From: an uncultured Chloroflexia bacterium
GTDB lineage: Bacteria > Chloroflexota > Limnocylindria > Limnocylindrales > CSP1-4
Assembly: GCA_963720755.1 (NCBI GenBank)
Contig: CAVRGP010000013.1
Span: forward strand, 229,512 to 293,511
DNA length: 64,000 nt
Direction of reading: 5' to 3'
Made by a program: the position numbers and the translations under genes. Below, one piece after another: positions 3,114 through 62,137 of the stretch. The notes beneath the pieces were generated by a model. The model made no database searches. It worked only from the letters and a program-made list of their open reading frames with translations, and had not been told where the DNA came from. Position 1 is the first letter of the stretch, and every line of letters begins with the position of its first letter.

Positions 3114-5174
3114 TCAGAGCCCCGAGACGACGCGTCCGAGGCCGCGCCGGAAGCCGATCCCGGCGACGCCCCGCCAGGGCACGGCGATGGTGCGCCGGAG
3201 ACGGGCGACCTCACGTTCTCGGCTCACGAGATACCGCCCGATCGCGGCGCTTTGCGCGCCCGACAAGTCGCCAGCGTGTTCCACCAGGAACGTCCTGGCC
3301 ATCGAGGCAGCGACGTCGGCGTCATTCATCAGGCCGAGGTGATCCTGGAGGGCGGTCACCCGGGCGATGAGCGGTCCCGCGTCCTCGCCGAGCGCCTCAC
3401 GAACGAACTCGAGCGTGTAGCGCAACCACTTGCCGGCGATCCGGAGTTCATGGAGGGTCTCGACGTCGGCCCAGCGAAGGACGGGCTCGTAGCCGCGAAC
3501 CTGTTCGTAGGCCGTCCAGATCCGGGATGCGGTCGTATCCCGGACCCGGTGGGGCTGGGTCGGCCCGACGGGCAGGACCGCGGACCCCTCGGTCCGGACG
3601 AAGTCCCGGTAGTCGTCGACCCATCGACGATAGCCATCCGAGTCCAGTTCCCGGACGAGCAGGACCCGGGCGTCATCGCGATGCTGGCGCCAGTCACGCA
3701 GGAGCGGATCGAGGGCACGTTGCTCGGAGGCCGGCAGATCTGACCGATAGTGGTCGGCGGCCTCGATGAGCACGTCGAGATCGCGGACGGCCCCAAGGCG
3801 CGAGGCGATCTCCTGCAGACCCGTGCGATACCGCCGGGTCCGCCGCTTTCGGAACGAGCTCCCGAAGACCCGCCAGGCCGCACGTTGTCGACGGGTCGCC
3901 ACCCGCATGGCGTGGAGTTCCTCGGGATCGTTGCCGGCGCGCGTCCCGGCCTCGCGAGCCAGCATCCGGGCGAGATGGAAGCGGAGCACCTTGCGGGCCG
4001 CTTCGGCGACATGATCGTCGGCCGTCACGCCCGGTGACTTGCCCACGACCAGGTGGGTCTCGGTCGGCGGAGCATCCTCGGCGGCTTCGCTGACGACGTC
4101 CGACGAGCTGGGCACCACCTCGGTCGAGGTCTCGCCGAGCAGCGCGTCGGCAACCGCAGCGAGGTCGTCGCCGGCCTCGATCTCGGCCTCGATCTCAGCC
4201 TCCTCGGCCTCCTCAGCCGCGGCTTCCTCGTCGTCGACCGCGTCAGCCGCGGCTTCCTCGTCGTCGACCGCGTCAGCCGCGGCCTGCTCGACCTCCTCGA
4301 CTGCATCCGCCCCGGCATGCTCGATCTCCTCGACCGCGTCAGCCGCAGCCCGCTCGACCTCCTCGATGGCTTCGGCGGCAGCCCGCTCGATCTCCTCGTC
4401 CGCGTCAGCCGCAGCCTGCCCGACCTCCTCGCCCGCTTCGGCATCGGACGCCGGGATATGGGCCGCCTCGGCTCGCTCTGCCGCTTCGGCCTCCTCGGTG
4501 GCCCGTGGAGACGCTTCGACCGGCGCGGCCGGCTCCTGGTCGCGCACGGATGCCATCGCCGCTTCGAGCTTGCTGTCGCTGACCGACTCGAGCGCGGCAT
4601 CGAGACTGAAGACATCGGCCAGGTGGGTGAGCCGGGCCTCATCGCCCTTGACCAGTTCTGCCTCCAACTCGGCGAATCGATCGATCACCCGTGAATGGGC
4701 CACGACGTCGACCTCGTCGAGGCTCAGTTCGACCCGGGTGTCGCCGTCCCGGACGACCCGCTTCCGCCGCAGCTGGCGGATCGTGACCAGCTCGATGAGC
4801 GGCGCATCGCCGGCGATCTCAAGGACCAGGGAGCGCGCATCCGAGGCCGGCCAGGCGTGCGGTGGCGTGGCCCGGTCGGCGGGACCCTCGATCTCCTCGC
4901 GGCGGAACGACCCACCGGCACCTTCTTCGTGCGCCGTGGACTTGACCGACACGACGGTGCCCCGCCCGGACTGGCGGATCCGAACGGCGAAGCCGGCCCG
5001 TGCCAGCGCACCGTCGGCGGTGTCGACGTAGCGATCCTCGGATTGCGAGGCTCGCGCGGTCGTGGCACCGACGAAGGGGCCGATCGACTTGGCCACGAGA
5101 TACCGCTCTGCCGCGGTCAGGTCGAGCACTCGATACTTGAGCTCGACCTCGACGGGACGATCCGGCGCCGTCAT
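3114..5174 (-). CDS. CYTH domain - acidic repeat linker - CHAD domain protein
   Basis: ORF 3114..5342(-). N-terminal CYTH (VEVELKYRV.., EIEGP). Central E/A/D-rich repeats. C-terminal CHAD (EELHAMRVATRRQRAAWRVF, LGLMNDADV). The ATG at 5174 overlaps the ppk1 stop (ATGA). Confidence 0.85.
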   Translation of the reverse strand: MTAPDRPVEVELKYRVLDLTAAERYLVAKSIGPFVGATTARASQSEDRYVDTADGALARAGFAVRIRQSGRGTVVSVKSTAHEEGAGGSFRREEIEGPADRATPPHAWPASDARSLVLEIAGDAPLIELVTIRQLRRKRVVRDGDTRVELSLDEVDVVAHSRVIDRFAELEAELVKGDEARLTHLADVFSLDAALESVSDSKLEAAMASVRDQEPAAPVEASPRATEEAEAAERAEAAHIPASDAEAGEEVGQAAADADEEIERAAAEAIEEVERAAADAVEEIEHAGADAVEEVEQAAADAVDDEEAAADAVDDEEAAAEEAEEAEIEAEIEAGDDLAAVADALLGETSTEVVPSSSDVVSEAAEDAPPTETHLVVGKSPGVTADDHVAEAARKVLRFHLARMLAREAGTRAGNDPEELHAMRVATRRQRAAWRVFGSSFRKRRTRRYRTGLQEIASRLGAVRDLDVLIEAADHYRSDLPASEQRALDPLLRDWRQHRDDARVLLVRELDSDGYRRWVDDYRDFVRTEGSAVLPVGPTQPHRVRDTTASRIWTAYEQVRGYEPVLRWADVETLHELRIAGKWLRYTLEFVREALGEDAGPLIARVTALQDHLGLMNDADVAASMARTFLVEHAGDLSGAQSAAIGRYLVSREREVARLRRTIAVPWRGVAGIGFRRGLGRVVSGL
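4212..4420. repeat. in-frame tandem repeats inside the CYTH-CHAD linker
   Basis: Exact 30-nt unit tcagccgcggcttcctcgtcgtcgaccgcg at 4212-4241 and 4242-4271 (encodes AADAVDDEEA x2). It is followed by degenerate units of about 39 nt (..AVEE[VI]E[QHR]AAADA..). Confidence 0.9.
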
Positions 5175-52246: not shown

Positions 52247-53389
52247 GGCGCAAGCGGCAGCTGTTCGAGCCCGGCCGTCTCCGGCAGGCCGTGGACGAGA
52301 TTGAAGGCCTGGATCGCCTGGCCGGCGGCGCCCTTGACCAGGTTGTCCTCGACGCCGATCGCCAGGATCCGGCCGGTCCGCTCGTCGAGGCTGACGTGGA
52401 TCCGGACGTGGTTGCTGCCGGTCACGTCCTTGGTCGCCGGCGGGTCCGGCACGACCGTCACGAACGGCTCGTCGGCGTAGGCCGAGGCGTACATGGCGTC
52501 GAGTTCCGACTGGGTGATCTTGCGCGTCGGGCGGACGTGGCTGGCCGACAGGATGCCGCGGGTCATCGGGATGAGGTGGGGCAGGAAGTCGACCGCGATG
52601 ACGCCCGGGTTGGCACCGAGGTCGAGGCCCTGGCGCGCGGTGAGCTCGGCGAGTTCCTGCTCGATCTCGGCGACGTGCCGGTGGCCACCGATCCCGTAGG
52701 CCTTGACGCTCTCGTTGACCTCGCCGAAGAGCAGCCCGGTCCTGGCTTCCCGGCCCGCGCCGGAAACGCCGCTCTTGGCGTCGACGACGAGGTCACCGAT
52801 CAGCCCGGCCCGAGCGAGGGGAGCGAGCGCGAGCAGCGTGGCCGTCGGGTAGCAGCCCGGGCGCACCGACGATCGCGATCTCGGCATCGACCAGCGCACT
52901 GAGCTCCGCCCGATGCAGCTCGGGGAGACCGTAGACGGCCTGGTCGAGCAGGTCCGGCCGCGGGTGCTCGAAGCCGTACCAGCGCGGATAGTCGGCGGGG
53001 TCGCGCAGTCGGAAGTCGGGGCCCTGGTCGATGATCGCGGTTCCGTTGGCGATCAGCCCGGGCACCAACTCGGCGGCCGTTCCGTGGGGGAGCGCCATGA
53101 AGACCGCGTCGAGCGACTCCGGTAGTTCGGCGTGGATGTCGAGATCGAGGGTTGCCAGGTGCGGATGGACGTTGCCGACCGGATCGTGGTCGCGCTGGCG
53201 GCCGGTCAGGCCCACCAGATCCACGTTCGGATGTCGGGCCAGGAGCCGGATGAGCTCACCGCCGACGTAGCCGGTCGCACCGATGATCCCGACGCGGATC
53301 CGGCGTGGCCCGCCGGCAGGGTCGAGTCCGCGCAGGGTCCGTGAGGCAGGGGTCGCGGTCGTCGTCGTCACAGCTGGATGACTATACAT
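52243..53389 (-). pseudogene. argC: N-acetyl-gamma-glutamyl-phosphate reductase, reading frame interrupted once
   Basis: N-terminal part (VGIIGATGYVGGEL) is in ORF 52793..53389 up to ..AIVGAPG. The active-site continuation PGCYPTATLLAL..DAKSGVSGAG.. is in ORF 52243..52899. The junction gcgCCCGGGctgc at 52855-52860 looks like one extra base. Start is ATG 53389 or GTG 53371. Confidence 0.85.
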
Positions 53390-53408
53390 CTGAGTGCATA
53401 GTCATGCA
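53375..53408 (-). promoter_or_regulatory. tandem ARG-box-like operator at the argC 5' end
   Basis: Minus strand reads TGCAT-gact-ATGCA ctcaga TGTAT-agtc-ATCCA. These are two 5-4-5 dyads 20 nt apart in a locally AT-richer patch, matching the TGAAT-N4-ATTCA ArgR box architecture with actinobacterial-like TGCAT half-sites. argR is in the same cluster. Confidence 0.5.
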
Positions 53409-53460
53409 ATGGCGTCGGTCGGGTGCGCAGCTCAGGCAGGCCCACGAGGGCGCGAGGTCA

Positions 53461-53520
53461 ACGAAGGCACCCGCCCCATGAAGGCGCCCGCCCCACGAAG
53501 GCGCCCGCCCCACGAAGGCG
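53461..53520. repeat. 17-nt tandem repeat (3.5 copies) abutting the first repeat module
   Basis: acgaaggc(a/g)cccgcccc at 53461, 53478 and 53495, plus a partial copy at 53512-53520, directly followed by module block A. Confidence 0.9.
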
Positions 53521-53818
53521 TGATGCTTGATTTCAGGCACTTTGGACCGTGTGCTTTGCCGTATGCGCGTAGGCAGCATACGGGCGGTGCAGCCCCCCGA
53601 GACCACCCGATCCGCCTCCCCGGGCCGAGCCGCCGCCCCGCCGCCTCGCGCCACCGAGCCGCCGGGCGCCGCCGCGAGCCGAGCCGCCCCGCCCGGGCGT
53701 CTTCGGCCAGGTCGCCCGCCGACGCCCGCCTGGCCGCTCGGCCGCCCTAGCCCCGACGTATGCCGCCTACACGCATACTCGGGGAGAGTGTCGTCGCCCC
53801 CCGTCGAATCAAGCATCA
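53521..53818. mobile_element. 298-bp non-coding element bounded by inverted copies of the bipartite module (MITE/REPIN-like), copy 1
   Basis: Left end 53521-53582: TGATGCTTGATTT-N27-GTATGCGCGTAGGCAGCATAC. Right end 53756-53818 is the inverted copy (..GTATGCCGCCTACACGCATAC-N27-GAATCAAGCATCA). The interior is GC-rich low-complexity with no credible ORF. Confidence 0.6.
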
Positions 53819-53831
53819 GCCCTCGGGCTCG

Positions 53832-54406
53832 CTAGGCCGCCTCGGGCTCGCAGACGAATTGGAACGAACCGGAGGCAAGCTGGTTCGTCGTCAACGAGTG
53901 GTAGGTCCCGTGGCCTGTGATGGTCTGTGCGTCGAAATCGAGCTCGATGACCAGGTCTTTGCCTTGGGGCTCCGCTCGCCGGCCTGACCCAGTAAAGGGT
54001 GCTGTCGCCAGGTCCGCTCACTTCGGACTTCGAACGTGCCGTCCTGCTGGACGGACGCCGAGAAATGACTGTCTTCGACACCGTCGAGCGTCCCCCAGAC
54101 ATTCGCGCTGGTCGGCAAGGTTCCGTCGTCCTTGAAGAGGAAGCACTGTCCGGTCGTCATCGGCAATGTTCGCTTCCACACCTGCGAGCCGATCCGGATG
54201 GTGTTCGGCTCGACCGCGCCCGCCGGCTCCGGCTCCACGTCCCCGGTCTGGCCGCCACCGCCCGAACCACTCGAGCCCTGCGGGTCGTCCGACGATTCGC
54301 CATCGACGAAACCGTCCGGGGCGGTCTCGGTGGCCACTGATTCGGCGCCGCCACAGGCGGTCGTCGCGAGCGCGAGCGTCGCGATCAAGGTGAACAGGAT
54401 TCGCAA
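53832..54406 (-). pseudogene. secreted lipoprotein (hypothetical), C-terminal part in a different frame
   Basis: ORF 53891..54406(-) starts MRILFTLIATLALATTAC (lipobox). The best-coding C-terminal stretch (..KDLVIELDFDAQTITGHGTYHSLTTNQLASGSFQFVCEPEAA, stop 53832-53834) is in another frame. At least one frame change lies between about 53966 and 54020. Confidence 0.45.
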
Positions 54407-54498
54407 TCTGGGCCTCCCTCCCTAGGTCTTGGTTGCCCACCTACCGTATCGAACCGGTGCAAGTCGGGCGCCCAGGGCCGCGGCCGCGGTCGCGGCCC

Positions 54499-54990
54499 TC
54501 AGTCCAGGATGTCGGGCCGCATGTCGGGGCCGGTGGCGACGACCTCGCCTTCGGCCTCGAACGCCTTCTCGCCGGTCGACACGATCGCGAAGCGGTGGTG
54601 GACCACGGTCGCCCCGGCCGAGAGCATCGCGTTGACCGGGCAGTACTTCTTCGCGGACAGCTCGATGCAGCGACGGATCGACGCCTCGGACAGGTCGCGA
54701 CCGGTGACCTGGTGGGTGACGACGATGTCGGTGAAGACCTGGGGGTACTCGTCGCGCTGGCTGCCGGTGACGGTGACCGTGTACTCGTCGATGGTCTGGC
54801 GCTTCTTCTCGGCGATCGAGATGACGTCCATCGCGGTGCAGGCGCCGAGCGCCGACAGGATCGTCTCGACCGGGCTGCCGCCCTGGTCCGACGTGCGATC
54901 GTCGTAGTCGTAGGGATGGCCGGAACTGGGCTCGGCGTGGAGGTGCATCCCCCCGAGGTGGCGGATCTCGACGGACTTGTGGGTGGGCAT
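54499..54990 (-). CDS. OsmC/Ohr family peroxiredoxin-like protein
   Basis: 163 aa. Conserved Cys pair contexts (LGACTAMD, KKYCPV). Confidence 0.85.
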   Translation of the reverse strand: MPTHKSVEIRHLGGMHLHAEPSSGHPYDYDDRTSDQGGSPVETILSALGACTAMDVISIAEKKRQTIDEYTVTVTGSQRDEYPQVFTDIVVTHQVTGRDLSEASIRRCIELSAKKYCPVNAMLSAGATVVHHRFAIVSTGEKAFEAEGEVVATGPDMRPDILD

Positions 54991-54992
54991 CG

Positions 54993-57230
54993 TCAGACTC
55001 CGGCCAGCGCGATCGGGTTGGTTTCGTCGTCATCGGTGGTGGCGGCGTCGTCGTCGGCCGCCGCGTTGCCGTCCGAGCCGGCCCCGCGGGCGCTCTCCTC
55101 GGCCAGGAACTGCTCGCGATAGAGCCGAGCGTACAGCCCGTCCTGGGCGAGCAGCTCGGCGTGGGTGCCCCGTTCCGCGATCCGGCCACGCTCGTAGACC
55201 ATGATCCGGTCGGCGCGCAGGATGGTCGACAGCCGGTGGGCGATGGCGATCGTCGTCCGGCCCTCCATCAGGCTCTCGAACGCTTTCTGGATGAGCCGCT
55301 CCGACACGGTGTCGAGGGCCGAGGTCGCCTCGTCGAGGATGAGGATCCGGGGGTCCTTGAGCAGCACCCGGGCGATGGCCAGGCGTTGCTTCTCGCCGCC
55401 CGACAGCTTGTAGCCGCGCTCTCCGACGAACGTGTCGTAGCCCTCGGGGAGTTCCATGATCCGGTCGTGGATGGACGCGGCCGTGGCGGCGGCGATGAGC
55501 TCCTCGTCGGTCGCCTCGGGCCGGGCGTAGCGCAGGTTGTCGTGGACCGAGGCGTGGAACAGGTACGTCTCCTGGGTCACGGCACCGACGATGTCGCCGA
55601 GCGAGGCGAGCGTGATCTTGCGCACGTCGGTGTCGTCGATCTCGACCGCGCCCGAGTCGACGTCGTACAGCCGCGAGACGAGATAGGTCGTCGACGTCTT
55701 GCCGGCACCCGACGGCCCGACCAGGGCGACGAGCTCGCCGGGCTCGGCCACGAAGTCGATGTGGTCGAGCGCGAAGGGGACCTGGGTCGGGGCGTCGGGG
55801 GCACGGGGTCGGGGCGCCGCCGTCGGTGGTCGGGTCTGCATCCGTCGTCCCGAGATCGTGTCCGCAGTCGTGTCCGCCGCGCCGGTCATGGCGGCCACGT
55901 CGGGCTCGGCGGCCCATTCGGCGTCATCGAATGTGTCCTGGCCGAGGGCATCAGCCTCGCCGGCGGCCACCGCGTCGTGGGCGCGCTGCGAGGGGACCGG
56001 TTCGGTCGGATAGGCGAACGAGACGTCGCGGAAACGGACTCGGCCGCGGGTCGTCGCCGGACGCATCGTGACCGCGTCGGGCGCATCGACGATCTCCGGG
56101 TCCATCTCGAGGTATTCGAAGATCCGGTCGAACAGGGCGAGCGAGCCCTGCAGCTCGACCTGGATGTTGAGCAGCTGGCCGAGCGGGAAGAAGAGTCGAC
56201 TCTGGAGGGTCGTGAAGGCGACGATCGTGCCGGCGGTCGGGGCGTCGGGGCTGCCGTTCGCCGCGAGCGTGCCGGCCAGCCAGTACACGAACGCGGGCAT
56301 GATCGAGAAGATCGTGCCGATGATCATGAAGAACCAGCGCCCGACCATCGCCTGGCGGATCTGGAGCACGGCCAGTCGCTGGTTGAGGGCCCGGAACTTG
56401 ACGATGGCGTTGGCCTGCTGGCCGAACGTCTTCGACAGCAGGATCCCCGACACGCTGAGGGTCTCCTCGGTCGTCGCGCTCAGTTCGGCGAGGGATTGCT
56501 GGGTCTCGGTCGAGACCTCGCGGCGGACCTTGCCGACTCGGTAGGTGAGGTAGAGGAAGAACGGGGTCAGGGCGAGCGACAGGAGCGCGAGCCGCCAGTC
56601 GAGCAGGAACATCGCGATGATCGTGCTGGTCGCGATGGCCAGGTTGCTGGTCAGCGAGCTGGCCGTGTCGGTGACGACGGCCTGGACGCCGCCGACGTCA
56701 TTGGCCAGTCGGCTCTGGATCTCGCCGGTACGCGTTTCGGTGAAGAAGCGCAGCGGCATCGACTGCAGGTGGGCGTACAGCGCGCCGCGCAGGTCCTGCA
56801 TCACGCTCTGGCCGATGACGTTGTTGAGGTAGCTCTGGCCGACCCCGATCAAGCCCGTGATGATCGGCAGGATGATCATCAGGCCGACGTACAGGTTCAG
56901 GTTCGTGTAGTCGCCGCCGATGATGACCTGGTCGAGAAGGACGCCGAGCAGGAGCGGGTTGATCAGGCCGATGAGGCTGGTCGTCAGGATCGCGACGAGG
57001 ACGACGACGACCTGCAGTCGATACGGCTTGAAGAAGATCAGGATGCGGCGGAGGGTCCGGCCACGTCGCTCCTTGGGGACGGGGGTGAAGTCGCGGCTGA
57101 CCCCGCTGCCGAAGGGACCGCCTCGTCCGCCTCCGCCGCCGGTGCCGCCGGTGCCGCCGCCGATGCGCCCGCCGCGGCCACCGACCGCGCCACCGGTCGC
57201 TGTCCGCGTCTGTCCTCGTGGAAACCCCAT
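54993..57230 (-). CDS. ABC exporter, fused transmembrane and ATP-binding domains (MsbA/type I exporter-like)
   Basis: 745 aa. Gly-rich N-tail, 6-TM domain, Walker A GPSGAGKTS, signature LSGGEKQR, Walker B LILDEATSALD. A low-complexity insert of about 75 aa sits between the first NBD strand and Walker A. Confidence 0.9.
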   Translation of the reverse strand: MGFPRGQTRTATGGAVGGRGGRIGGGTGGTGGGGGRGGPFGSGVSRDFTPVPKERRGRTLRRILIFFKPYRLQVVVVLVAILTTSLIGLINPLLLGVLLDQVIIGGDYTNLNLYVGLMIILPIITGLIGVGQSYLNNVIGQSVMQDLRGALYAHLQSMPLRFFTETRTGEIQSRLANDVGGVQAVVTDTASSLTSNLAIATSTIIAMFLLDWRLALLSLALTPFFLYLTYRVGKVRREVSTETQQSLAELSATTEETLSVSGILLSKTFGQQANAIVKFRALNQRLAVLQIRQAMVGRWFFMIIGTIFSIMPAFVYWLAGTLAANGSPDAPTAGTIVAFTTLQSRLFFPLGQLLNIQVELQGSLALFDRIFEYLEMDPEIVDAPDAVTMRPATTRGRVRFRDVSFAYPTEPVPSQRAHDAVAAGEADALGQDTFDDAEWAAEPDVAAMTGAADTTADTISGRRMQTRPPTAAPRPRAPDAPTQVPFALDHIDFVAEPGELVALVGPSGAGKTSTTYLVSRLYDVDSGAVEIDDTDVRKITLASLGDIVGAVTQETYLFHASVHDNLRYARPEATDEELIAAATAASIHDRIMELPEGYDTFVGERGYKLSGGEKQRLAIARVLLKDPRILILDEATSALDTVSERLIQKAFESLMEGRTTIAIAHRLSTILRADRIMVYERGRIAERGTHAELLAQDGLYARLYREQFLAEESARGAGSDGNAAADDDAATTDDDETNPIALAGV

Positions 57231-57374
57231 CCGGCGACGCTACCACGGGTGCCGCGTGGTCGCAGGTGGCGTCGCGGTTTGATGCTTGATTTCAGGCGGT
57301 CGGTGGACATCCTCCTGCGGTATGCGCGTAGGCGGCATCAAGGCGGTGGGGCCGCGTTCGATCGCCCGTCGACC

Positions 57375-57475
57375 GCCAGCCAAGCGCCTGCCAATTGCCA
57401 GCCAAGCGCCTGCCTATTGCCAGCCAAGCGCCTGCCCATTGCCAGCCAAGCGCCTGCCAATTGCCAGCCAAGCGG
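57375..57475. repeat. 22-bp tandem repeat, 4 full copies plus a partial copy
   Basis: GCCAGCCAAGCGCCTGCC(A/T/C)ATT at 57375, 57397, 57419 and 57441, then partial GCCAGCCAAGCGG at 57463. A further GCCAGCCAAGCGA lies at 57496. The array is bracketed by a CGCCCGTCGA(C/T)CGCCAGCC direct repeat (57363 and 57484). Confidence 0.95.
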
Positions 57476-57560
57476 CAGGCGACCGCCCGTCGATCGCCAG
57501 CCAAGCGACAGCTAAGCGCTTGCCAAGCGCTGGTCGATCGGCCACGCGTACGGTGCCGAC

Positions 57561-57965
57561 GTGAACTGGGACAGTCAGCGCCCGCGCGATCCACAGCAGC
57601 AGCACGGGTTCGATCTCATCGGCTGGTCAATCAAGCGCCGACGCCTGGCGAGGCACTGGACGCAACGTCAACTCGAGGTGCAGTGCGGCATCGATCAGAC
57701 CGTCATCAGTCGGCTCGAGAACGGCCGGCAGTACGGCCTCAAGTGGCGCCGATTCGCCGACCTTGTCGATGCACTCGGGGGTCTCGATATGCCGCCCGGG
57801 AGCTTCCCGCCCGCCGGGCTCCCGAAGCCATCTGCGAACCGTGAGTCGGATGCTCCGGCCCGAACCGACGATATCGAGGACTCGGCCGGATCCGATCGGC
57901 TCGCCAACCGGGACTCGTTCGATGATCCCGACTTGTTCGACGATCCGGATCTGTTCGGCGGCTAG
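57561..57965 (+). CDS. XRE-family helix-turn-helix protein with acidic repeat tail
   Basis: 134 aa (GTG start). HTH core WTQRQLEVQCGIDQTVISRLENG. C-terminus ..DSFDDPDLFDDPDLFGG. It lies entirely inside repeat element copy 2, downstream of the 22-bp array. Confidence 0.7.
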   Translation: MNWDSQRPRDPQQQHGFDLIGWSIKRRRLARHWTQRQLEVQCGIDQTVISRLENGRQYGLKWRRFADLVDALGGLDMPPGSFPPAGLPKPSANRESDAPARTDDIEDSAGSDRLANRDSFDDPDLFDDPDLFGG

Positions 57966-58139
57966 GGACTCTCTGCGCCCCGACGCGAAGGCTCATCGCC
58001 CCGGGCCTGATGCCGCCTACGCGCATACCGACCAGTGGGTCCCAAAAGGTGCCTGGAATCAAGCATCAAACGCGCCGCGGGCAAGGCAGCCGCCTCGGCC
58101 CGGCGGCGGGTCGGCCCTCGGCGCCGCGGCCGCGCCGAC

Positions 58140-59171
58140 CTACCAGGCGGTGGCGGTCGCGGCCTCGGTGATGCCCTGGGCTTCGAGCCAGCGCTCGGCG
58201 TCGATGGCGGCCTTGCAGCCGTCGGCTGCGGCGGTGACGGCCTGGCGGTATCGATGGTCGTGGACGTCGCCGGCGATGAACACGCCGTCGACCTTGGAGC
58301 CGGTCTCGTCGTGGACGACGAGGTAGCCCTTCTCGTCGACATCGAGCCAATCGCGGAAGGCCTCGGTGTTCGGCCGATAGCCGATGGCGATGAACACGCC
58401 GCCGACATCGAGTCGGGTCTGGTCGCCGGTCCGGGTATCGGACACGAGTAGCCCCTCGACCTTGTTCTCGCCGACCACCTCGTCGACCGCGGTGTTCGGG
58501 TGGATCTCGATCTTGTCGTGGGCCGTCGCCCGGTCGACCATGATCTTGGAGGCACGGAACGAGTCGCGACGGTGGAGCAGGTGGACCTTCGTGGCGAAGC
58601 GGGTGAGGTAGGTGGCCTCCTCGAAGGCGGTGTCGCCGCCGCCGATGACCGCGATCTCCTGGTCCTTGAAGAAGAAGCCGTCGCAGGTCGCGCAGGCGGA
58701 CACGCCGCGGCCGCGCAACCGGGTCTCGCTGTCGAGGCCGAGCCACAGGGCCGACGCGCCGGTCGCCACGATCACGGCCTGGGCGCGGTACTCGGTGCCG
58801 TGCGCCCAGATCCGGAACGGACGCTCGGAGAAGTCGACCCGATCGATGTCCGAATCGACCATGCGGGCACCGAATCGCTCGGCCTGGGCTCGCATCGCGG
58901 CCATCAGGTCGGGGCCCTGGATGCCGTCGACGAAGCCCGGGTAGTTCTCGACGTCGCTGGTCAGCATCAGCTGGCCGCCCGGAGCGGAACCGGCCAGGAC
59001 GACGGGCTCGAGGTTGGCCCGGGCGGCATAGATCGCCGCGGTCAGGCCGGCCGGACCGGACCCGACGATGACGACCTTGGCATCGACGTGGCCCCCGCCG
59101 CTCAGTGGGGTGGAGGGGCCGGACGATGCCGGTTCGTCGAAGGTGGTGGCGAAACCGCCGAACTCTGTCAT
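58140..59171 (-). CDS. trxB: thioredoxin-disulfide reductase
   Basis: VVIVGSGPAGLTAAIYAARA (FAD), redox-active CATCDG, GGGDTAFEEA (NADPH). Confidence 0.9.
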   Translation of the reverse strand: MTEFGGFATTFDEPASSGPSTPLSGGGHVDAKVVIVGSGPAGLTAAIYAARANLEPVVLAGSAPGGQLMLTSDVENYPGFVDGIQGPDLMAAMRAQAERFGARMVDSDIDRVDFSERPFRIWAHGTEYRAQAVIVATGASALWLGLDSETRLRGRGVSACATCDGFFFKDQEIAVIGGGDTAFEEATYLTRFATKVHLLHRRDSFRASKIMVDRATAHDKIEIHPNTAVDEVVGENKVEGLLVSDTRTGDQTRLDVGGVFIAIGYRPNTEAFRDWLDVDEKGYLVVHDETGSKVDGVFIAGDVHDHRYRQAVTAAADGCKAAIDAERWLEAQGITEAATATAW

Positions 59172-59180
59172 GGCCTCATC

Positions 59181-59212
59181 GTATCACTCTTGCGATACCC
59201 CCTGGGGGTATC
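59181..59212. other. perfect 19-nt palindrome plus an extra GTATC arm between LLM and trxB genes
   Basis: GATACCCCC-T-GGGGGTATC at 59194-59212 (9-bp arms). An additional GTATC at 59181-59185 is inverted relative to GATAC at 59194. Located 10-40 nt upstream of the trxB start and 18 nt downstream of the LLM gene stop. Confidence 0.6.
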
Positions 59213-59229
59213 TGTGGAGGGTCCGGATA

Positions 59230-60144
59230 TCAGGGTAGGGTCCGGAGTTGGGGGATCACGTCGCGACCGAACCGCTCGAGCGCGGCGAGATCGGCGAAGC
59301 CCTTGTACGACACGATGACGTGGTCGGCTCCCGCGTCGGACAGGTCGCCGAAGCGGTCGATGATCTCGTCGGGCGATTCGGCGCTGGTCGCGGCGGCACC
59401 GCCCTCCGCGGGCCCGGCGAAGCGGACCTGCTGCAGGGTCGAGTGCTCGATCTCGGCCGGGTCGCGACCGATCGCGGCGCAATGCTCGGCCAGGATCGCG
59501 TACTTGCGGGCGATGCCCTCGGGGGTGCCGAAGACGTTGGTCGCGTCGCCGTACTGGGCCACGAGGCGCAGGGTCTTCTTCTCGCCACCGCCACCGATCA
59601 TGATCGGGACCCTGGGGCGTGACAGCGACTGCGGGGAGTTGAGGAGCCTGGTCGCCTCGTAGTGGCGGCCGTGGAACTCGCCCTCCGTGCCGTGGTCGCC
59701 GTCCATCATCTGGTGGGCGATCTGGAGCGTCTCCTCGAGCAGTTCGAAGCGCTCGCCGAGCGGCGGGAAGGGGAAGCCGAGGCTGTTCGACTCGTACTCG
59801 TTCCAGGCGGCGCCGATCCCGAGCCAGGCCCGACCGCCCGACAGGACGTCGAGGGTGGTGGCGGCCTTGACCCACAGGCCGGGGTGTCGGTAGTGGACAC
59901 CACCGACCATCAGGCCGAGGCGGGCTCGCTTGGTGTGCGCGGCCAGGAACCCGAGCGTCGTCCAGCCCTCGAGCATCGGTTCCTCGACGGCACCGACGCC
60001 ACGGATCTGGAAGAAGTGATCCATCACCCAGATCGAGTCGAAGCCGACGTCGTCGGCCGTGCGCGCGATCTCGGCAAGGGTCGGGGCGATCGCGGCCGTG
60101 CCACCGGGCCACGTGAACGAGCTGATCTGCAGGCCGATCTTCAT
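59230..60144 (-). CDS. LLM-class (luciferase-like) F420-dependent oxidoreductase
   Basis: 304 aa. MKIGLQISSFTWPGG N-terminus and TIM-barrel LLM profile (FDSIWVMDHFF, GIGAAWNEYE). Confidence 0.85.
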   Translation of the reverse strand: MKIGLQISSFTWPGGTAAIAPTLAEIARTADDVGFDSIWVMDHFFQIRGVGAVEEPMLEGWTTLGFLAAHTKRARLGLMVGGVHYRHPGLWVKAATTLDVLSGGRAWLGIGAAWNEYESNSLGFPFPPLGERFELLEETLQIAHQMMDGDHGTEGEFHGRHYEATRLLNSPQSLSRPRVPIMIGGGGEKKTLRLVAQYGDATNVFGTPEGIARKYAILAEHCAAIGRDPAEIEHSTLQQVRFAGPAEGGAAATSAESPDEIIDRFGDLSDAGADHVIVSYKGFADLAALERFGRDVIPQLRTLP

Positions 60145-60180
60145 TTCGTTGCGTAGCGTACCAAAATAGGCCCGAGGGGC

Positions 60181-60243
60181 CCCGCGGCGGTTTGATGCTC
60201 GATTTCAGGCGTTCAGTGGGACCCCGTTCCCGATATGCGTGTA
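60181..60243 (+). repeat. solo copy of the bipartite module
   Basis: TTTGATGCTCGATTT-N27-ATATGCGTGTAGGCGGCATAT. Located 37 nt upstream of the LLM gene start and reading towards the membrane-protein gene. Confidence 0.7.
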
Positions 60244-60402
60244 GGCGGCATATTTCGCGTCCGAGGGTCTTCGCGGCGGGGCCGGGGGCGGATCCGGAGC
60301 CCGCTTGACGCGGCCACCTCGCGACCCCGACAGTCCGCAGGTGCACGAACCGCCGACCGAACCAGAAACGCCCGGAAACGATGTCCCGCCTCGGGACGTC
60401 GA

Positions 60403-61584
60403 TTGTGGGTCCAGCCCGCCGAGCCGGAACCCGACACGACGCCAGCGTCCGGGGGAGCCATCGACCGCGAGGATGGCGCTGGCCACGACGATGGCGCTGG
60501 CCACGATGATGGCGCTGACGCCGAGGATGAGGCCGGCGCCGAGGTCGAAGACGCCGAGGACGAATACGGGGACGACGGCGACGACGACCGGGACGAGGAG
60601 GACGCGCAGGCCGAGCCCGGCGGCCCGGGCGTGCCGGCTCGATGGGCGGCGTTCGTGTTCTTCGCGCTCGGTGGCGTCGTCCTGTGGCTCGCGTACCTTG
60701 ACATCGCGAACTCTGTCGTCCTGTCGCCGGAGTTGGTGGTTCGATTCCTGGTGCTGGCCGCCCCGGCGGTCTGCGCGGTCCTCATCCCCGGGGCGATCCT
60801 GCTCCGACACCCGGATGCCTGGTACCGCGGGCGGACCCTCCTGTTCGGTGCCCTGGTCTTTGCCTCGACGTCGTTCTTCCACACGATCGAGCGGTCGCTC
60901 CAGGAGACGTTCGGAAACCTGACCCCGCCGCCACAAAGCGGGCTCGATTGGTTCGTCCCGTCGGCCATCGTCTATTCGGGGTTCGTCACGATCCTCGGGC
61001 TGTTCGGGCTGCTCTACCTCGGCGTCGGCCTGTCCAGGGCCAGGAACTACGAGGACGTCGGCCGATCGAGGGTGGCAGCGGTGGCGCTGTTGGTCGTCGC
61101 GGCCATCTCGGTCCTTGGCCGGCTCTTCGTGCTCACGAAGGTCGACTTCGGCGACCCGCGCCTGACCTGGGATCTGCAGCTCTACGTCGTCTCGATCGTG
61201 GTCCTGGGGATCCTGACCACGCTGACCTGGACCTACCTCGCGATCACGCTGACCCGGTCCGCGCTCGCCGGTGAGGAGCCCGTCGCGGGCTGGGCGCTGG
61301 GGGCTATCGGGGCCTGGCTCGTGATGCTGTCATTCCTCGTCGTCGCCGTGGCCACGTTCGTGACGATCACGAGCCAGGATCTTGCCAACATGGTCGACGA
61401 CATTCGAGTCGGTCTGAATGCGTTCGGGCCGATCGCGCTCGTCATCGGGTTCCTGCTCGGGCTGCCGTCATTCGAGCGGGTCACCTGGGACGACGAGGCG
61501 GACTCCGATGCCACTGTCGACGAGTTCGACGCCGAGGTCGACGACGAGGTCGAGGCGGCGGCCATGGGCTCGTCGCTGGTCTGA
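60403..61584 (+). CDS. polytopic membrane protein with acidic repeat N-tail and acidic C-tail (hypothetical)
   Basis: ORF 60235..61584(+). The listed ATG lies inside the repeat module. Third-position GC rises only after about 60400, so TTG 60403 (or GTG 60631 just before the first TM) is more likely. About 8 TM helices. The tail has D/E/G repeats. Confidence 0.55.
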   Translation: MWVQPAEPEPDTTPASGGAIDREDGAGHDDGAGHDDGADAEDEAGAEVEDAEDEYGDDGDDDRDEEDAQAEPGGPGVPARWAAFVFFALGGVVLWLAYLDIANSVVLSPELVVRFLVLAAPAVCAVLIPGAILLRHPDAWYRGRTLLFGALVFASTSFFHTIERSLQETFGNLTPPPQSGLDWFVPSAIVYSGFVTILGLFGLLYLGVGLSRARNYEDVGRSRVAAVALLVVAAISVLGRLFVLTKVDFGDPRLTWDLQLYVVSIVVLGILTTLTWTYLAITLTRSALAGEEPVAGWALGAIGAWLVMLSFLVVAVATFVTITSQDLANMVDDIRVGLNAFGPIALVIGFLLGLPSFERVTWDDEADSDATVDEFDAEVDDEVEAAAMGSSLV

Positions 61585-61599
61585 GGGCTGTTGGTCGGC

Positions 61600-61867
61600 T
61601 TGATGCTGATTCGAGGCGGTCCCGGGACGCCTCCCGTTCGTATGCGCGTAGGCGGCATATCGGGAGGCGCATCGGCGAGTGACCCGCGGCGAGGTCCCAC
61701 CGTGTGAAGGGCGAGTCTGCGCGGACGGCGCCCGACGCCCCTGGGGCGGCTCGGCTTGGCCGCCGGCCCGATCCACCCGGTACGCCGCCAGCTCCTCGGT
61801 GCCCTTGATGCCGCCTACGCGCATACCGCCAGCGGAGGTCGTCGGACCGCCCCAAATCAAGCATCAA
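61600..61867. mobile_element. 268-bp non-coding element bounded by inverted bipartite modules, copy 3
   Basis: Left end 61600-61661: TTGATGCTGATTC-N27-GTATGCGCGTAGGCGGCATAT (1-nt deletion in block A). Right end 61803-61867 is the inverted copy (CCTTGATGCCGCCTACGCGCATAC-N27-AAATCAAGCATCAA). Confidence 0.6.
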
Positions 61868-61948
61868 CGTGGTGCCTGGTGGCACCGCTAGTGACAGACA
61901 GCTGGCACGGGCCAGGCACAGTCTCGGAACGTACCGAGGGAGCGACCG

Positions 61949-62137
61949 ATGGAAGAACCGACCGATCTGGATGAACCGATCCTGTACTGCGCGACGTGCG
62001 GCGCGCCGCTCACCGGGGACCCGGACGAGGATCCGACGGGCGACGCGGGCATGCCGATCTGCGGCGAATGCGAGCGCAATCGCGACTTCTTCGCGATGGA
62101 CGCGGCGGACGGCGACCTGGACGGCGAGATCCGGTGA
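61949..62137 (+). CDS. small acidic zinc-ribbon protein (hypothetical)
   Basis: 62 aa. CATCG..(17)..CGEC four-Cys pattern. GAGGGAG RBS 7 nt upstream of the ATG. Confidence 0.5.
   Translation: MEEPTDLDEPILYCATCGAPLTGDPDEDPTGDAGMPICGECERNRDFFAMDAADGDLDGEIR

Follow-up and report, generated by a model that had tools for sequence, protein, structure and literature searches.

A Cro/C1-type gene bracketed by inverted repeat modules in Limnocylindria-type Chloroflexota, with a putative operator dispersed through the genome

Repeats dispersed through the intergenic DNA of bacteria (REP, BIME, REPIN and MITE sequences) are generally put down to copying by a transposase. MITEs and mobile insertion cassettes consist of inverted ends, derived from insertion sequences (IS), around passenger genes. 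Invertible promoter switches that share one inverted repeat are known from the Bacteroides Mpi regulon and from fimS, plasmids of Acinetobacter carry pdif modules, and the core sites of integron attC elements (RYYYAAC/GTTRRRY) lie in co-oriented arrays next to intI. Among small regulators of the XRE type, HipB has operators of the form TATCC-N8-GGATA, and the C-proteins of restriction-modification systems use C-boxes. Here we describe a 793-bp unit in which a gene for a helix-turn-helix (HTH) protein of the XRE type lies between two inverted copies of a short bipartite module. It was found in a contig of an uncultured soil bacterium of the Chloroflexia (CAVRGP010000013.1, assembly GCA_963720755.1), of which a stretch of 64,000 nucleotides (positions 229,512 to 293,511) was analysed; this stretch is called the window below, and coordinates are those of the window unless a relative is named. 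In contrast to the repeats usually explained by copying, only two short blocks of the module are kept at orthologous sites, and the gene that is constantly enclosed encodes a plain DNA-binding protein. The closest described architecture is that of the REP/REPIN-RAYT family of proteobacteria (PMC3337134; PMC3116915). Our preferred reading, to which we give a probability of about 0.5, is that the HTH protein is a dimeric autoregulator with block B of the module as its operator, and that the dispersed module pairs are further binding sites.

The module is 58 nt long and consists of block A (TGATGCTTGATTT) and block B ([T/G]ATGC-N9-GCAT[C/A]), as defined by alignment of the seven copies in the window and then of 108 copies from relatives. 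Block B starts 39-43 nt, mostly 40-41 nt, after the start of block A, and the spacer and the sequence outside the blocks are unconserved among the 108 copies; in the left module of the HTH unit the non-conserved spacer is ~29 nt. Block A contains the same TGATGC half-site as block B. The block-B 21-mer occurs seven times and the block-A 20-mer four times in the window, where shuffled sequences lead one to expect 0.00, and all seven modules lie within 53.5-61.9 kb. In a pair, the two A blocks lie outermost and the two B blocks innermost (A-B...B'-A'); neighbouring modules are oriented (+,-) in 49 cases and (-,+) in 10.

The 793-bp unit is, to judge from its surroundings, a fixed and vertically inherited chromosomal locus. 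Its relatives are contigs of metagenome-assembled genomes (MAGs) or metagenomes, none of them a complete genome, and are referred to by locus numbers. Gene calls give the order ABC transporter (-), HTH (+), TrxB (-) in L001, L003, L062, L063, L064, L185 and L186, with an LLM-type oxidoreductase gene (-) after TrxB wherever gene calls are listed. The same locus was recognized by BLAST of flanking DNA in L002, L007, L009, L015, L024, L028 and L047; in L187, whose contig stops shortly before the HTH gene, only the trxB-LLM side is visible. In the contigs retrieved through homologues of the protein, this synteny extends from 80% down to ~42% protein identity. The orientation of the HTH gene relative to its flanks is the same at all loci compared, and the interiors of pairs are co-linear with both flanks in every comparison between assemblies (at least 13 HTH loci, the non-coding pair E1, and L029 vs L031). 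One tandem duplication was seen: at 2850-8540 of L063 the segment block B-HTH-block B'-trxB-LLM is present twice, with both HTH copies apparently intact.

Full modules stand on both sides of the HTH gene in the window, in L001, L002, L003, L007, L015, L024, L028, L047 and L064, and in 9 metagenome contigs. Block B alone stands on both sides in L062 (49% protein identity), L063 (46%) and L186, its centre being specific to the clade and the same on either side of the gene; the block B of the deep clades is GATGCA-N7-TGCATC. In L185 and L187 the HTH gene, with its stop directly against a methyltransferase gene, has both of its inverted block-B sites upstream, 32-84 bp apart. The bracketing is thus ancient: relatives of ~45% protein identity have it too, with inverted block-B sites but no block A. 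In L063, L185, L186 and L187 (loci of 4.5-12 kb), all sites at which both strands match the block-B pattern adjoin the HTH gene, shuffled sequences giving 0.04-0.07 matches per locus; L063 has one extra, weaker single-strand match just within the 3' end of each HTH copy. The upstream block B precedes the conserved -10-like hexamer of the HTH gene and lies 213-226 nt before the codons of helix 3 (190-195 nt in one clade; 16 loci in all), and its ATGC/GCAT arms are invariant or nearly so. The initial annotation had proposed that the HTH protein might be the partner that recognizes the modules. The positional part of this proposal has held up well, since homologues are flanked by block-B sites in all relatives examined (both upstream in L185 and L187), in the same inverted arrangement and at a near-fixed upstream distance; recognition itself, meaning binding to block B or block A, we infer from the sequences, as we do autoregulation and the role of the dispersed pairs.

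The blocks are also conserved in place. At orthologous positions flanking the HTH gene in 10 genomes, block A is 95-96% and block B 64-82% identical, as against 33-43% for the spacers and 32-36% for the outer flanks; at the left module the values are 96% for block A and 43% for the spacer. Because the blocks are conserved at orthologous sites at which the spacers have been randomised, selection on the sites in place is indicated and not recent copying. The sequence flavours of block B follow the clades of the HTH protein; shared ancestry predicts this same match, so that co-variation of protein and site is uninformative and was set aside as evidence.

The protein belongs to the XRE/Cro-C1 group, with Pfam matches to HTH_31 (6e-9, 36.5 bits, cut-off 27) and HTH_3 (7e-8, 32.8 bits, cut-off 23). 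Its 151 homologues at E < 1e-3 are all small HTH_3/HTH_31 proteins, none with a second domain. The conserved core comprises residues 1-77 (M-x-W...RPRDPQxQHGFDLIG...KRRRL...WTQRxLE..SGIDQTVISRLENGKQYGLRWSRFAxLVDALGGLD), and the recognition helix (helix 3, IDQTVISRLENG) is invariant or nearly so throughout the aligned family. Residues 81-134 form a variable tail, disordered in the AlphaFold2 (AF2) model, and the DDPDLF-DDPDLF repeat in it is, in the alignment of homologues, specific to the window genome. AF2 places helices at residues 11-30, 35-42, 46-53 and 62-72, with a pLDDT of 87-97 over residues 11-80 and below 62 beyond residue 80; the predicted structure is a compact all-helical domain with a helix-turn-helix. 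Its best Foldseek matches are C.AhdI, HipB, ClgR, SinR and a designed DNA-binding protein, with TM(target) of 0.70-0.84 for C.AhdI, HipB and the designed protein; a profile search of the PDB returned the 434 repressor, HipB and HigA, and fold and PDB searches together also place C.Esp1396I nearby. By the predicted fold, the nearest structures are therefore small dimeric autoregulators that bind operators (C.AhdI, HipB, ClgR, SinR). A phage or defence origin was rejected, as PHROGs and PADLOC gave generic HTH matches only. So was a type II antitoxin of the HipB or HigA kind: the neighbours are the ABC transporter gene and trxB, with no toxin gene adjacent, and NCBIfam models of the HipB type scored far under their cut-offs. 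The G+C content at third codon positions (GC3) of the HTH gene is 0.78, compared with ~0.92 in neighbouring genes, and a crude GC3-based gene caller overlooked the gene itself.

The window genome is that of a Limnocylindria-type Chloroflexota, in which modules are dispersed over intergenic regions, almost always as inverted pairs. An exact-pattern scan of 185,579 species genomes gave 58 loci, ~49 of them in ~14 MAGs labelled Candidatus Limnocylindrales, uncultured Chloroflexia, Thermomicrobiales or Chloroflexota and spread over several contigs per MAG; the remainder are single matches in unrelated phyla, at about the number expected by chance. The same pattern found at least 120 loci in Joint Genome Institute (JGI) metagenomes, ~105 of those among the matches listed being high in G+C and of this type. 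Among the matches listed, the genome and metagenome sets contain 101 unique pairs. Short, gene-free pairs account for 76 of these, with a distance between the centres of B and B' of 31-269 bp (mostly 50-222, mode 56-80); one further pair has overlapping modules, two exceed 1.4 kb, and ~23 have B-B' distances of 380-750 bp. The HTH gene is enclosed in every metagenome pair of this last class and in about half of those in genome loci, where the others enclose other genes (L002, L003, L010, L036). It is the only recurrent gene within pairs. Accessory genes were found inside other pairs, of modules or of block B, at 1630-2179 of L036 and at 1664-2423 and 8830-10547 of L062; they encode a ParE toxin (PF05016), an Imm5-like protein, and an ADP-ribosylglycohydrolase with a phosphatase. 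Unlike the HTH gene, such accessory contents vary between genomes at the same position. No 10-11 bp periodicity was seen in the distance between the two block-B sites of a pair, and helical phasing of the sites was rejected.

These observations can be joined as follows. A dimer of the protein would bind block B, a dyad-ended site of 17-21 bp, as HipB, the C-proteins and the 434 repressor bind their operators; the dyad ends and size of the site, its fixed upstream position, and the invariance of helix 3 together with that of the arms all point to such binding. Through the upstream block-B site, which in most genomes is ~50-85 nt 5' of the start codon, the protein would control its own promoter. 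In the ancestral state, block-B sites, as far as the fetched loci extend, would be present beside the HTH gene only. In one subclade, block B would have been joined at a fixed offset of 40-42 nt to block A, in which the TGATGC half-site is repeated, and the site thereby extended. The module family has expanded in that subclade, where the 58-nt module is present in dozens of intergenic regions as inverted pairs; these would be extra sites for the same protein. The dispersed pairs would be anchor, roadblock or nucleoid-type sites and not a classical regulon, and the HTH locus would be the founder of the repeat family and not a derivative with acquired cargo.

Several points weigh against this reading. 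The co-localisation of protein and site could reflect no more than inherited synteny. Block B has an asymmetric centre that is specific to each clade although helix 3 is unchanged, so that something besides helix 3 must read or homogenise the centre. The downstream site falls where the HTH gene and trxB converge with their 3' ends, a place that offers no obvious target to a classical operator. Block A is the best conserved part of the module, yet it is missing in deep clades, and thus may have a different reader. Upstream of the -10-like hexamer of the HTH gene, L003 (5949-5962), L148, L162 and L028 have a perfect palindrome of 12 bp (CCGGATATCCGG or CTGGATATCCAG), followed directly by a conserved GGTAAG/GATAAG motif; in the window its place is taken by GGTCGATCGGCC (57534-57545). 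This palindrome, which lies nearer to the promoter, is a candidate for an alternative operator in several genomes. The dispersed pairs are not regulon-like: they occupy co-directional, convergent and divergent intergenic regions about in proportion to the background (from crude gene calls), and a Pfam scan of open reading frames (ORFs) next to short pairs (10/30 ORFs, 15 loci) returned unrelated housekeeping functions, and a coherent regulon was rejected. Finally, the search pattern fixes block A and the arms of block B, so that their conservation in the general sample is partly ascertainment.

Some of these points would fit another arrangement, in which the modules are read by a different factor and the HTH gene, a mere resident between two intergenic regions with one module each, may simply regulate the divergent ABC transporter gene or trxB-LLM. 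Such a factor, host or selfish, might be a nucleoid protein, a transposase with its gene elsewhere or, most plausibly, a site-specific recombinase, and we regard this main rival as rather unlikely. The asymmetric, clade-specific centre of block B between invariant arms resembles the core of a recombination site with its overlap region, and the absence from deep clades of the most conserved block would also agree with another reader. On the other side, the block-B sites of the deep clades are found only beside the HTH gene, bar the weaker single-strand match in L063, and the upstream site keeps its distance from that gene. A rearrangement is visible at the position of elements E3 and E4. The order at 60190-61868 of the window is E3_L, its decayed partner, an ORF of 449 aa for a membrane protein (ending at 61584; without a Pfam match), E4_L, which is an extra module in direct orientation, and E4_R; L001 (8664-8871) has a single 198-bp pair there, a hybrid of the left half of E3 and the right half of E4 with its junction in block B'. 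The difference suggests that recombination between modules in direct orientation deleted or inserted a segment. This junction, the accessory genes that vary within pairs (ParE toxin, Imm5-like protein, ADP-ribosylglycohydrolase, 449-aa membrane protein) and the density of seven modules in 8.5 kb of the window speak for this rival. Against it, the gene lists of ten HTH loci contain no recombinase or transposase (a search that did not extend to the 8-kb module loci), pair interiors are never inverted between the genomes compared, and in many pairs B and B' are 50-80 bp apart. Such distances would be short for recombination between two sites.

The initial annotation had also described the unit as a possible autoregulated mobile cassette with cargo, and the two shorter non-coding copies as its deletion derivatives. 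In this scheme, which is of the MITE or mobile-insertion-cassette kind, the modules are terminal inverted repeats, the HTH gene is a passenger, and a transposase acts in trans. Inverted ends of ~60 nt, many dispersed pairs and genes enclosed in some of them are what it would lead one to expect. It is already largely refuted, and we consider it very improbable. The HTH unit occupies one syntenic position in a single orientation in all genomes compared, which indicates that the HTH gene is not mobile cargo. No target-site duplications were visible at the borders of the 13 elements inspected, and the gene lists of the ten HTH loci show no transposase, other loci not having been searched. Copies in one genome have nothing but the two blocks in common: the spacers between A and B are unrelated between copies, partner arms are no more alike (44% identity) than non-partners (45%), and the persistence of blocks at orthologous sites amid randomised spacers also runs counter to mobility. 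Nor do the short copies look like deletion derivatives: the interiors of E3 and E4 are unrelated to that of the 793-bp unit, and that of E1, which is GC-rich, is only marginally similar to it, 4 of 200 shuffles reaching the same similarity.

The inverted arrangement of modules, and their intergenic location whatever the orientation of the genes, would also be expected if the pairs acted as RNA or single strands, be it as hairpins (REP or BIME, attC, terminator or mRNA stabiliser) or as a small RNA or peptide, with the HTH unit as a case with a large loop. Read outward, several copies open a frame ATG CCG CCT... (MPPTRIP...EIKHQ). This is improbable. RNAalifold found in 108 modules only the trivial ATGC/GCAT stem and no covariation, and the spacers of partner arms are not complementary above background. 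Rfam 15 gave no match at gathering score in the whole window and none at E up to 5 in 53300-62000, and 57150-58200 has no terminator-like sites. The outward peptide was rejected, as its frame is lost in many copies; the offset between A and B varies over 39-43 nt, and the frame is thus not kept.

Coordinates of the elements in the window are collected in Table 1. The features described in the initial annotation (array, half-copy, direct and inverted repeats, HTH gene and inverted modules) are all present where it had placed them.

Table 1. Positions of the HTH unit, its parts and the other module elements in the 64,000-nt window
Feature	Position	Strand	Details
Left module of HTH unit	57277-57340	+	block A core TGATGCTTGATTT 57280-57292; block B ATGCGCGTAGGCGGCAT 57322-57338
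Direct repeat bracketing the array	57363-57381 and 57484-57502		19-mer CGCCCGTCGAYCGCCAGCC, located exactly
22-bp array	57375-57474		unit GCCAGCCAAGCGCCTGCCNATT; Tandem Repeats Finder (TRF): period 22, 4.5 copies, 96% matches, score 186
Degenerate 11-mer units	57496-57530		GCCAGCCAAGC GACAGCTAAGC GCTTGCCAAGC; part of the motif common to the window and L001
-10-like hexamer	57549-57554	+	TACGGT (TANNNT), 6 nt 5' of the GTG start
XRE/Cro-C1-type HTH gene	57561-57965	+	GTG start, 134 aa
18-bp tandem repeat within HTH coding sequence	57912-57957	+	encodes DDPDLF-DDPDLF tail ...SFDDPDLFDDPDLFGG
Right module of HTH unit	58009-58071	-	block B' 58010-58026; block A' 58046-58057
Element E1, non-coding inverted pair	53518-53818		modules 53518-53580 (+) and 53759-53818 (-)
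Module E3_L	60190-60252	+	decayed partner ~60305-60370
Element E4, non-coding inverted pair	61600-61868		modules 61600-61659 (+) and 61807-61868 (-)

The array between the left module and the HTH gene has units beginning at 57375, 57397, 57419, 57441 and 57463 and a related copy at 57496. Each unit carries a palindrome centred on CAATTG. An 8-bp inverted repeat is formed by GGCAGGCG at 57474 opposite CGCCTGCC at 57451, the latter being present in all array units, and the direct repeat CGCCCGTCGAYCGCCAGCC marks the local sequence that was duplicated and out of which the array grew. An 11-bp sub-period, CGCCAGCCAAG, was detected by TRF as well, with ~14 units and 68% matches spanning 57374-57530, which indicates that the 22-bp array is an expansion of a shorter local motif. 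In L001, the closest relative (HTH protein 80% and interior DNA 86% identical), the place of the array is taken by about four degenerate 11-mers (GCCnGCCAAGC), and the array was not found in L002, L003 or the other orthologous loci examined. Its absence from relatives implies that it arose in the lineage of the window. Unrelated arrays occur in or beside the unit elsewhere (32-bp x 5.3 in L007, 20-bp x 12.9 in L024, 37-bp x 3.1 in L003, 16-bp x 4 in L186). With a period of at least 9, at least 2.5 copies and crude GC3-based gene calls, tandem repeats are present in 25 of 79 module-bearing intergenic regions vs 11 of 182 others (odds ratio 7.2, p = 2e-7), covering 8.2% vs 1.1% of bases with unrelated units of period 9-37.

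The array is best read as a lineage-specific repeat expansion, that is, a variable-number tandem repeat, and not as conserved iterons: it is missing from the closest relatives, and tandem arrays are enriched in intergenic regions with modules. It would be a recent expansion, by slippage or unequal exchange, of an 11-mer found locally between operator and promoter. In the window, block B is 367 nt from the codons of helix 3, vs 213-226 nt in more than 10 genomes; the array shifts block B from ~75-140 nt to ~220 nt upstream of the HTH start, ~150 bp further than in most relatives. It may have altered the spacing of operator and promoter, though it is no conserved functional part. The initial annotation had also considered a relic of a replication or partition system with iteron-like repeats, in which the array would bind the HTH protein or a Rep/Par-like factor. 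The regular 22-bp phasing with its 11-bp sub-period, directly 5' of a gene for a DNA-binding protein, and the palindrome in each unit are in keeping with such a role. We find it hard to credit all the same, as the array is absent from L001, L002, L003 and other orthologous loci, unrelated arrays are common near modules and take various places in or beside the unit in other genomes, and neither rep or par genes nor Rep/Par domains are found nearby.

The TACGGT hexamer corresponds to a TAGCGT/TAGGGT hexamer kept in orthologues 8-14 nt 5' of the start (17 upstream regions aligned), and is the putative core promoter of the HTH gene, which would have a very short leader. A scan of 57150-58200 with the sigma-70 promoter consensus and for terminators gave no match; short pairs, moreover, favour neither divergent nor convergent intergenic regions, and a promoter or terminator role was rejected. 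The motif GACGCTACCAC (reverse complement GTGGTAGCGTC, with an extended -10-like TGnTAnnnT) is located at 57232-57262, just 5' of the start of the ABC transporter gene (57230, minus strand), and is kept upstream of that gene in the window, L001, L002, L003, L062 and L186. This motif and the TAGCGT-type hexamers are probably promoters with a short leader or none.

Other observations concern the remaining modules. The pair orthologous to E1 is present in L001, L002, L003 and L062, and a 17-bp tandem array at 53461-53520, also found in L001, abuts block A of E1. The interior of E1 (53580-53759), non-coding and GC-rich, is 99.4% identical to that of L001, while its flanks are 85-96% and the HTH interior 86% identical; this points to strong conservation of unexplained cause or to recent exchange. 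Half-sites of block A are reiterated with periods of 22, 11 and 13 bp at 5748-5811 of L001, 5825-5850 of L002 and 4383-4435 of L049. ORFs run through modules, for example at 57240-57383 (-), 58010-58171 (+), 60205-60968 (-) and from a start at 60235 (+), with translations of the type MPPTRIP...IKHQ, and public gene calls cross modules at 1746-2369 of L002 and 2244-3158 of L003; the 5' end of the 449-aa ORF is probably over-long. ORFs called across modules are an annotation artefact of the repeats. Far from the HTH unit, a coding-looking tandem repeat of 33/66 bp lies at 4168-4458 (TRF score up to 253).

For annotation, it follows that such units should not be called mobile elements and that modules explain the spurious ORFs across them. 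If the protein does read the blocks, the locus would be a tractable example of an operator that spread through a genome and was retained by selection, and a candidate nucleoid or insulator system in Limnocylindria. To our knowledge, this abundant soil and freshwater lineage has no cultured model; a literature search on repeats in Limnocylindria returned nothing relevant. A wider proposal, which we advance tentatively and hold to be possible but somewhat doubtful, is that a non-enzymatic Cro/C1 protein and its operator founded genome-wide paired repeats in a partnership like that of REP and RAYT. The pairs would have been selected as chromosome-organising, insulating or roadblock sites, not transposed, and would also be hot spots for tandem expansion and for the turnover of accessory genes.

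On the features tested, the unit is not a member of the MITE/mobile insertion cassette, integron, inverton or iteron families. With MITEs and mobile insertion cassettes it shares inverted ends, dispersed non-coding copies of 150-320 bp and occasional enclosed genes; unlike them it has neither target-site duplications nor a shared interior, and the gene-bearing copy is fixed in synteny. Invertons and pdif modules likewise form many segments of 150-300 bp with the same inverted sites, asymmetric centres and, in some, variable accessory genes. In contrast to these, the orthologous pairs compared between assemblies show no orientation polymorphism, on account of which an invertible switch was rejected, and many pairs are too close. 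Block B is unlike XerC/D or integron core sites, and attC sites or gene cassettes were rejected because the elements are dispersed, the sequence that precedes TGATGC is variable and no integrase was found in the loci.

The REP/RAYT systems (PMC3337134; PMC3116915) are matched as follows: the repeats are short, intergenic and mostly inverted doublets; a vertically inherited single-copy gene is flanked by its own repeat type (judged here from contigs, and duplicated in L063); and the repeat sequence is specific to the genome or clade and persists for long at orthologous sites. RAYT is an IS200-like HUH/Y1 transposase, whereas the gene flanked here encodes a non-catalytic Cro/C1 HTH domain of 75 aa, only HTH families and no catalytic domain being found in the 134-aa protein by Pfam and AF2. 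Unlike in REP doublets, the arms are complementary in the two blocks only; as partner arms are not complementary outside them, there is no conserved hairpin, and a replicating master sequence is lacking, since the copies of one genome are not near-identical. The unit is, moreover, bipartite, with A and B at a fixed offset. Two defining features of the REP/REPIN-RAYT family, the HUH/Y1 transposase and the hairpin doublets, are thus missing.

The closest relationship of protein and site, binding being presumed here, is that of HipB, the C-proteins, the 434 and lambda repressors and ClgR. The locus departs from these small XRE autoregulators in that no partner (toxin, restriction-modification or phage gene) is adjacent, that one site is downstream of the gene, and that the site, in genomes of the crown clade, is part of a 58-nt module that recurs in dozens of intergenic regions, whichever way the neighbouring genes are oriented. 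It agrees with them in the fold and size of the DNA-binding domain, in a site of 17-21 bp with dyad ends and a non-symmetric centre, and in the presence of two sites beside the protein's own gene, one of them at a fixed distance 5' of the promoter.

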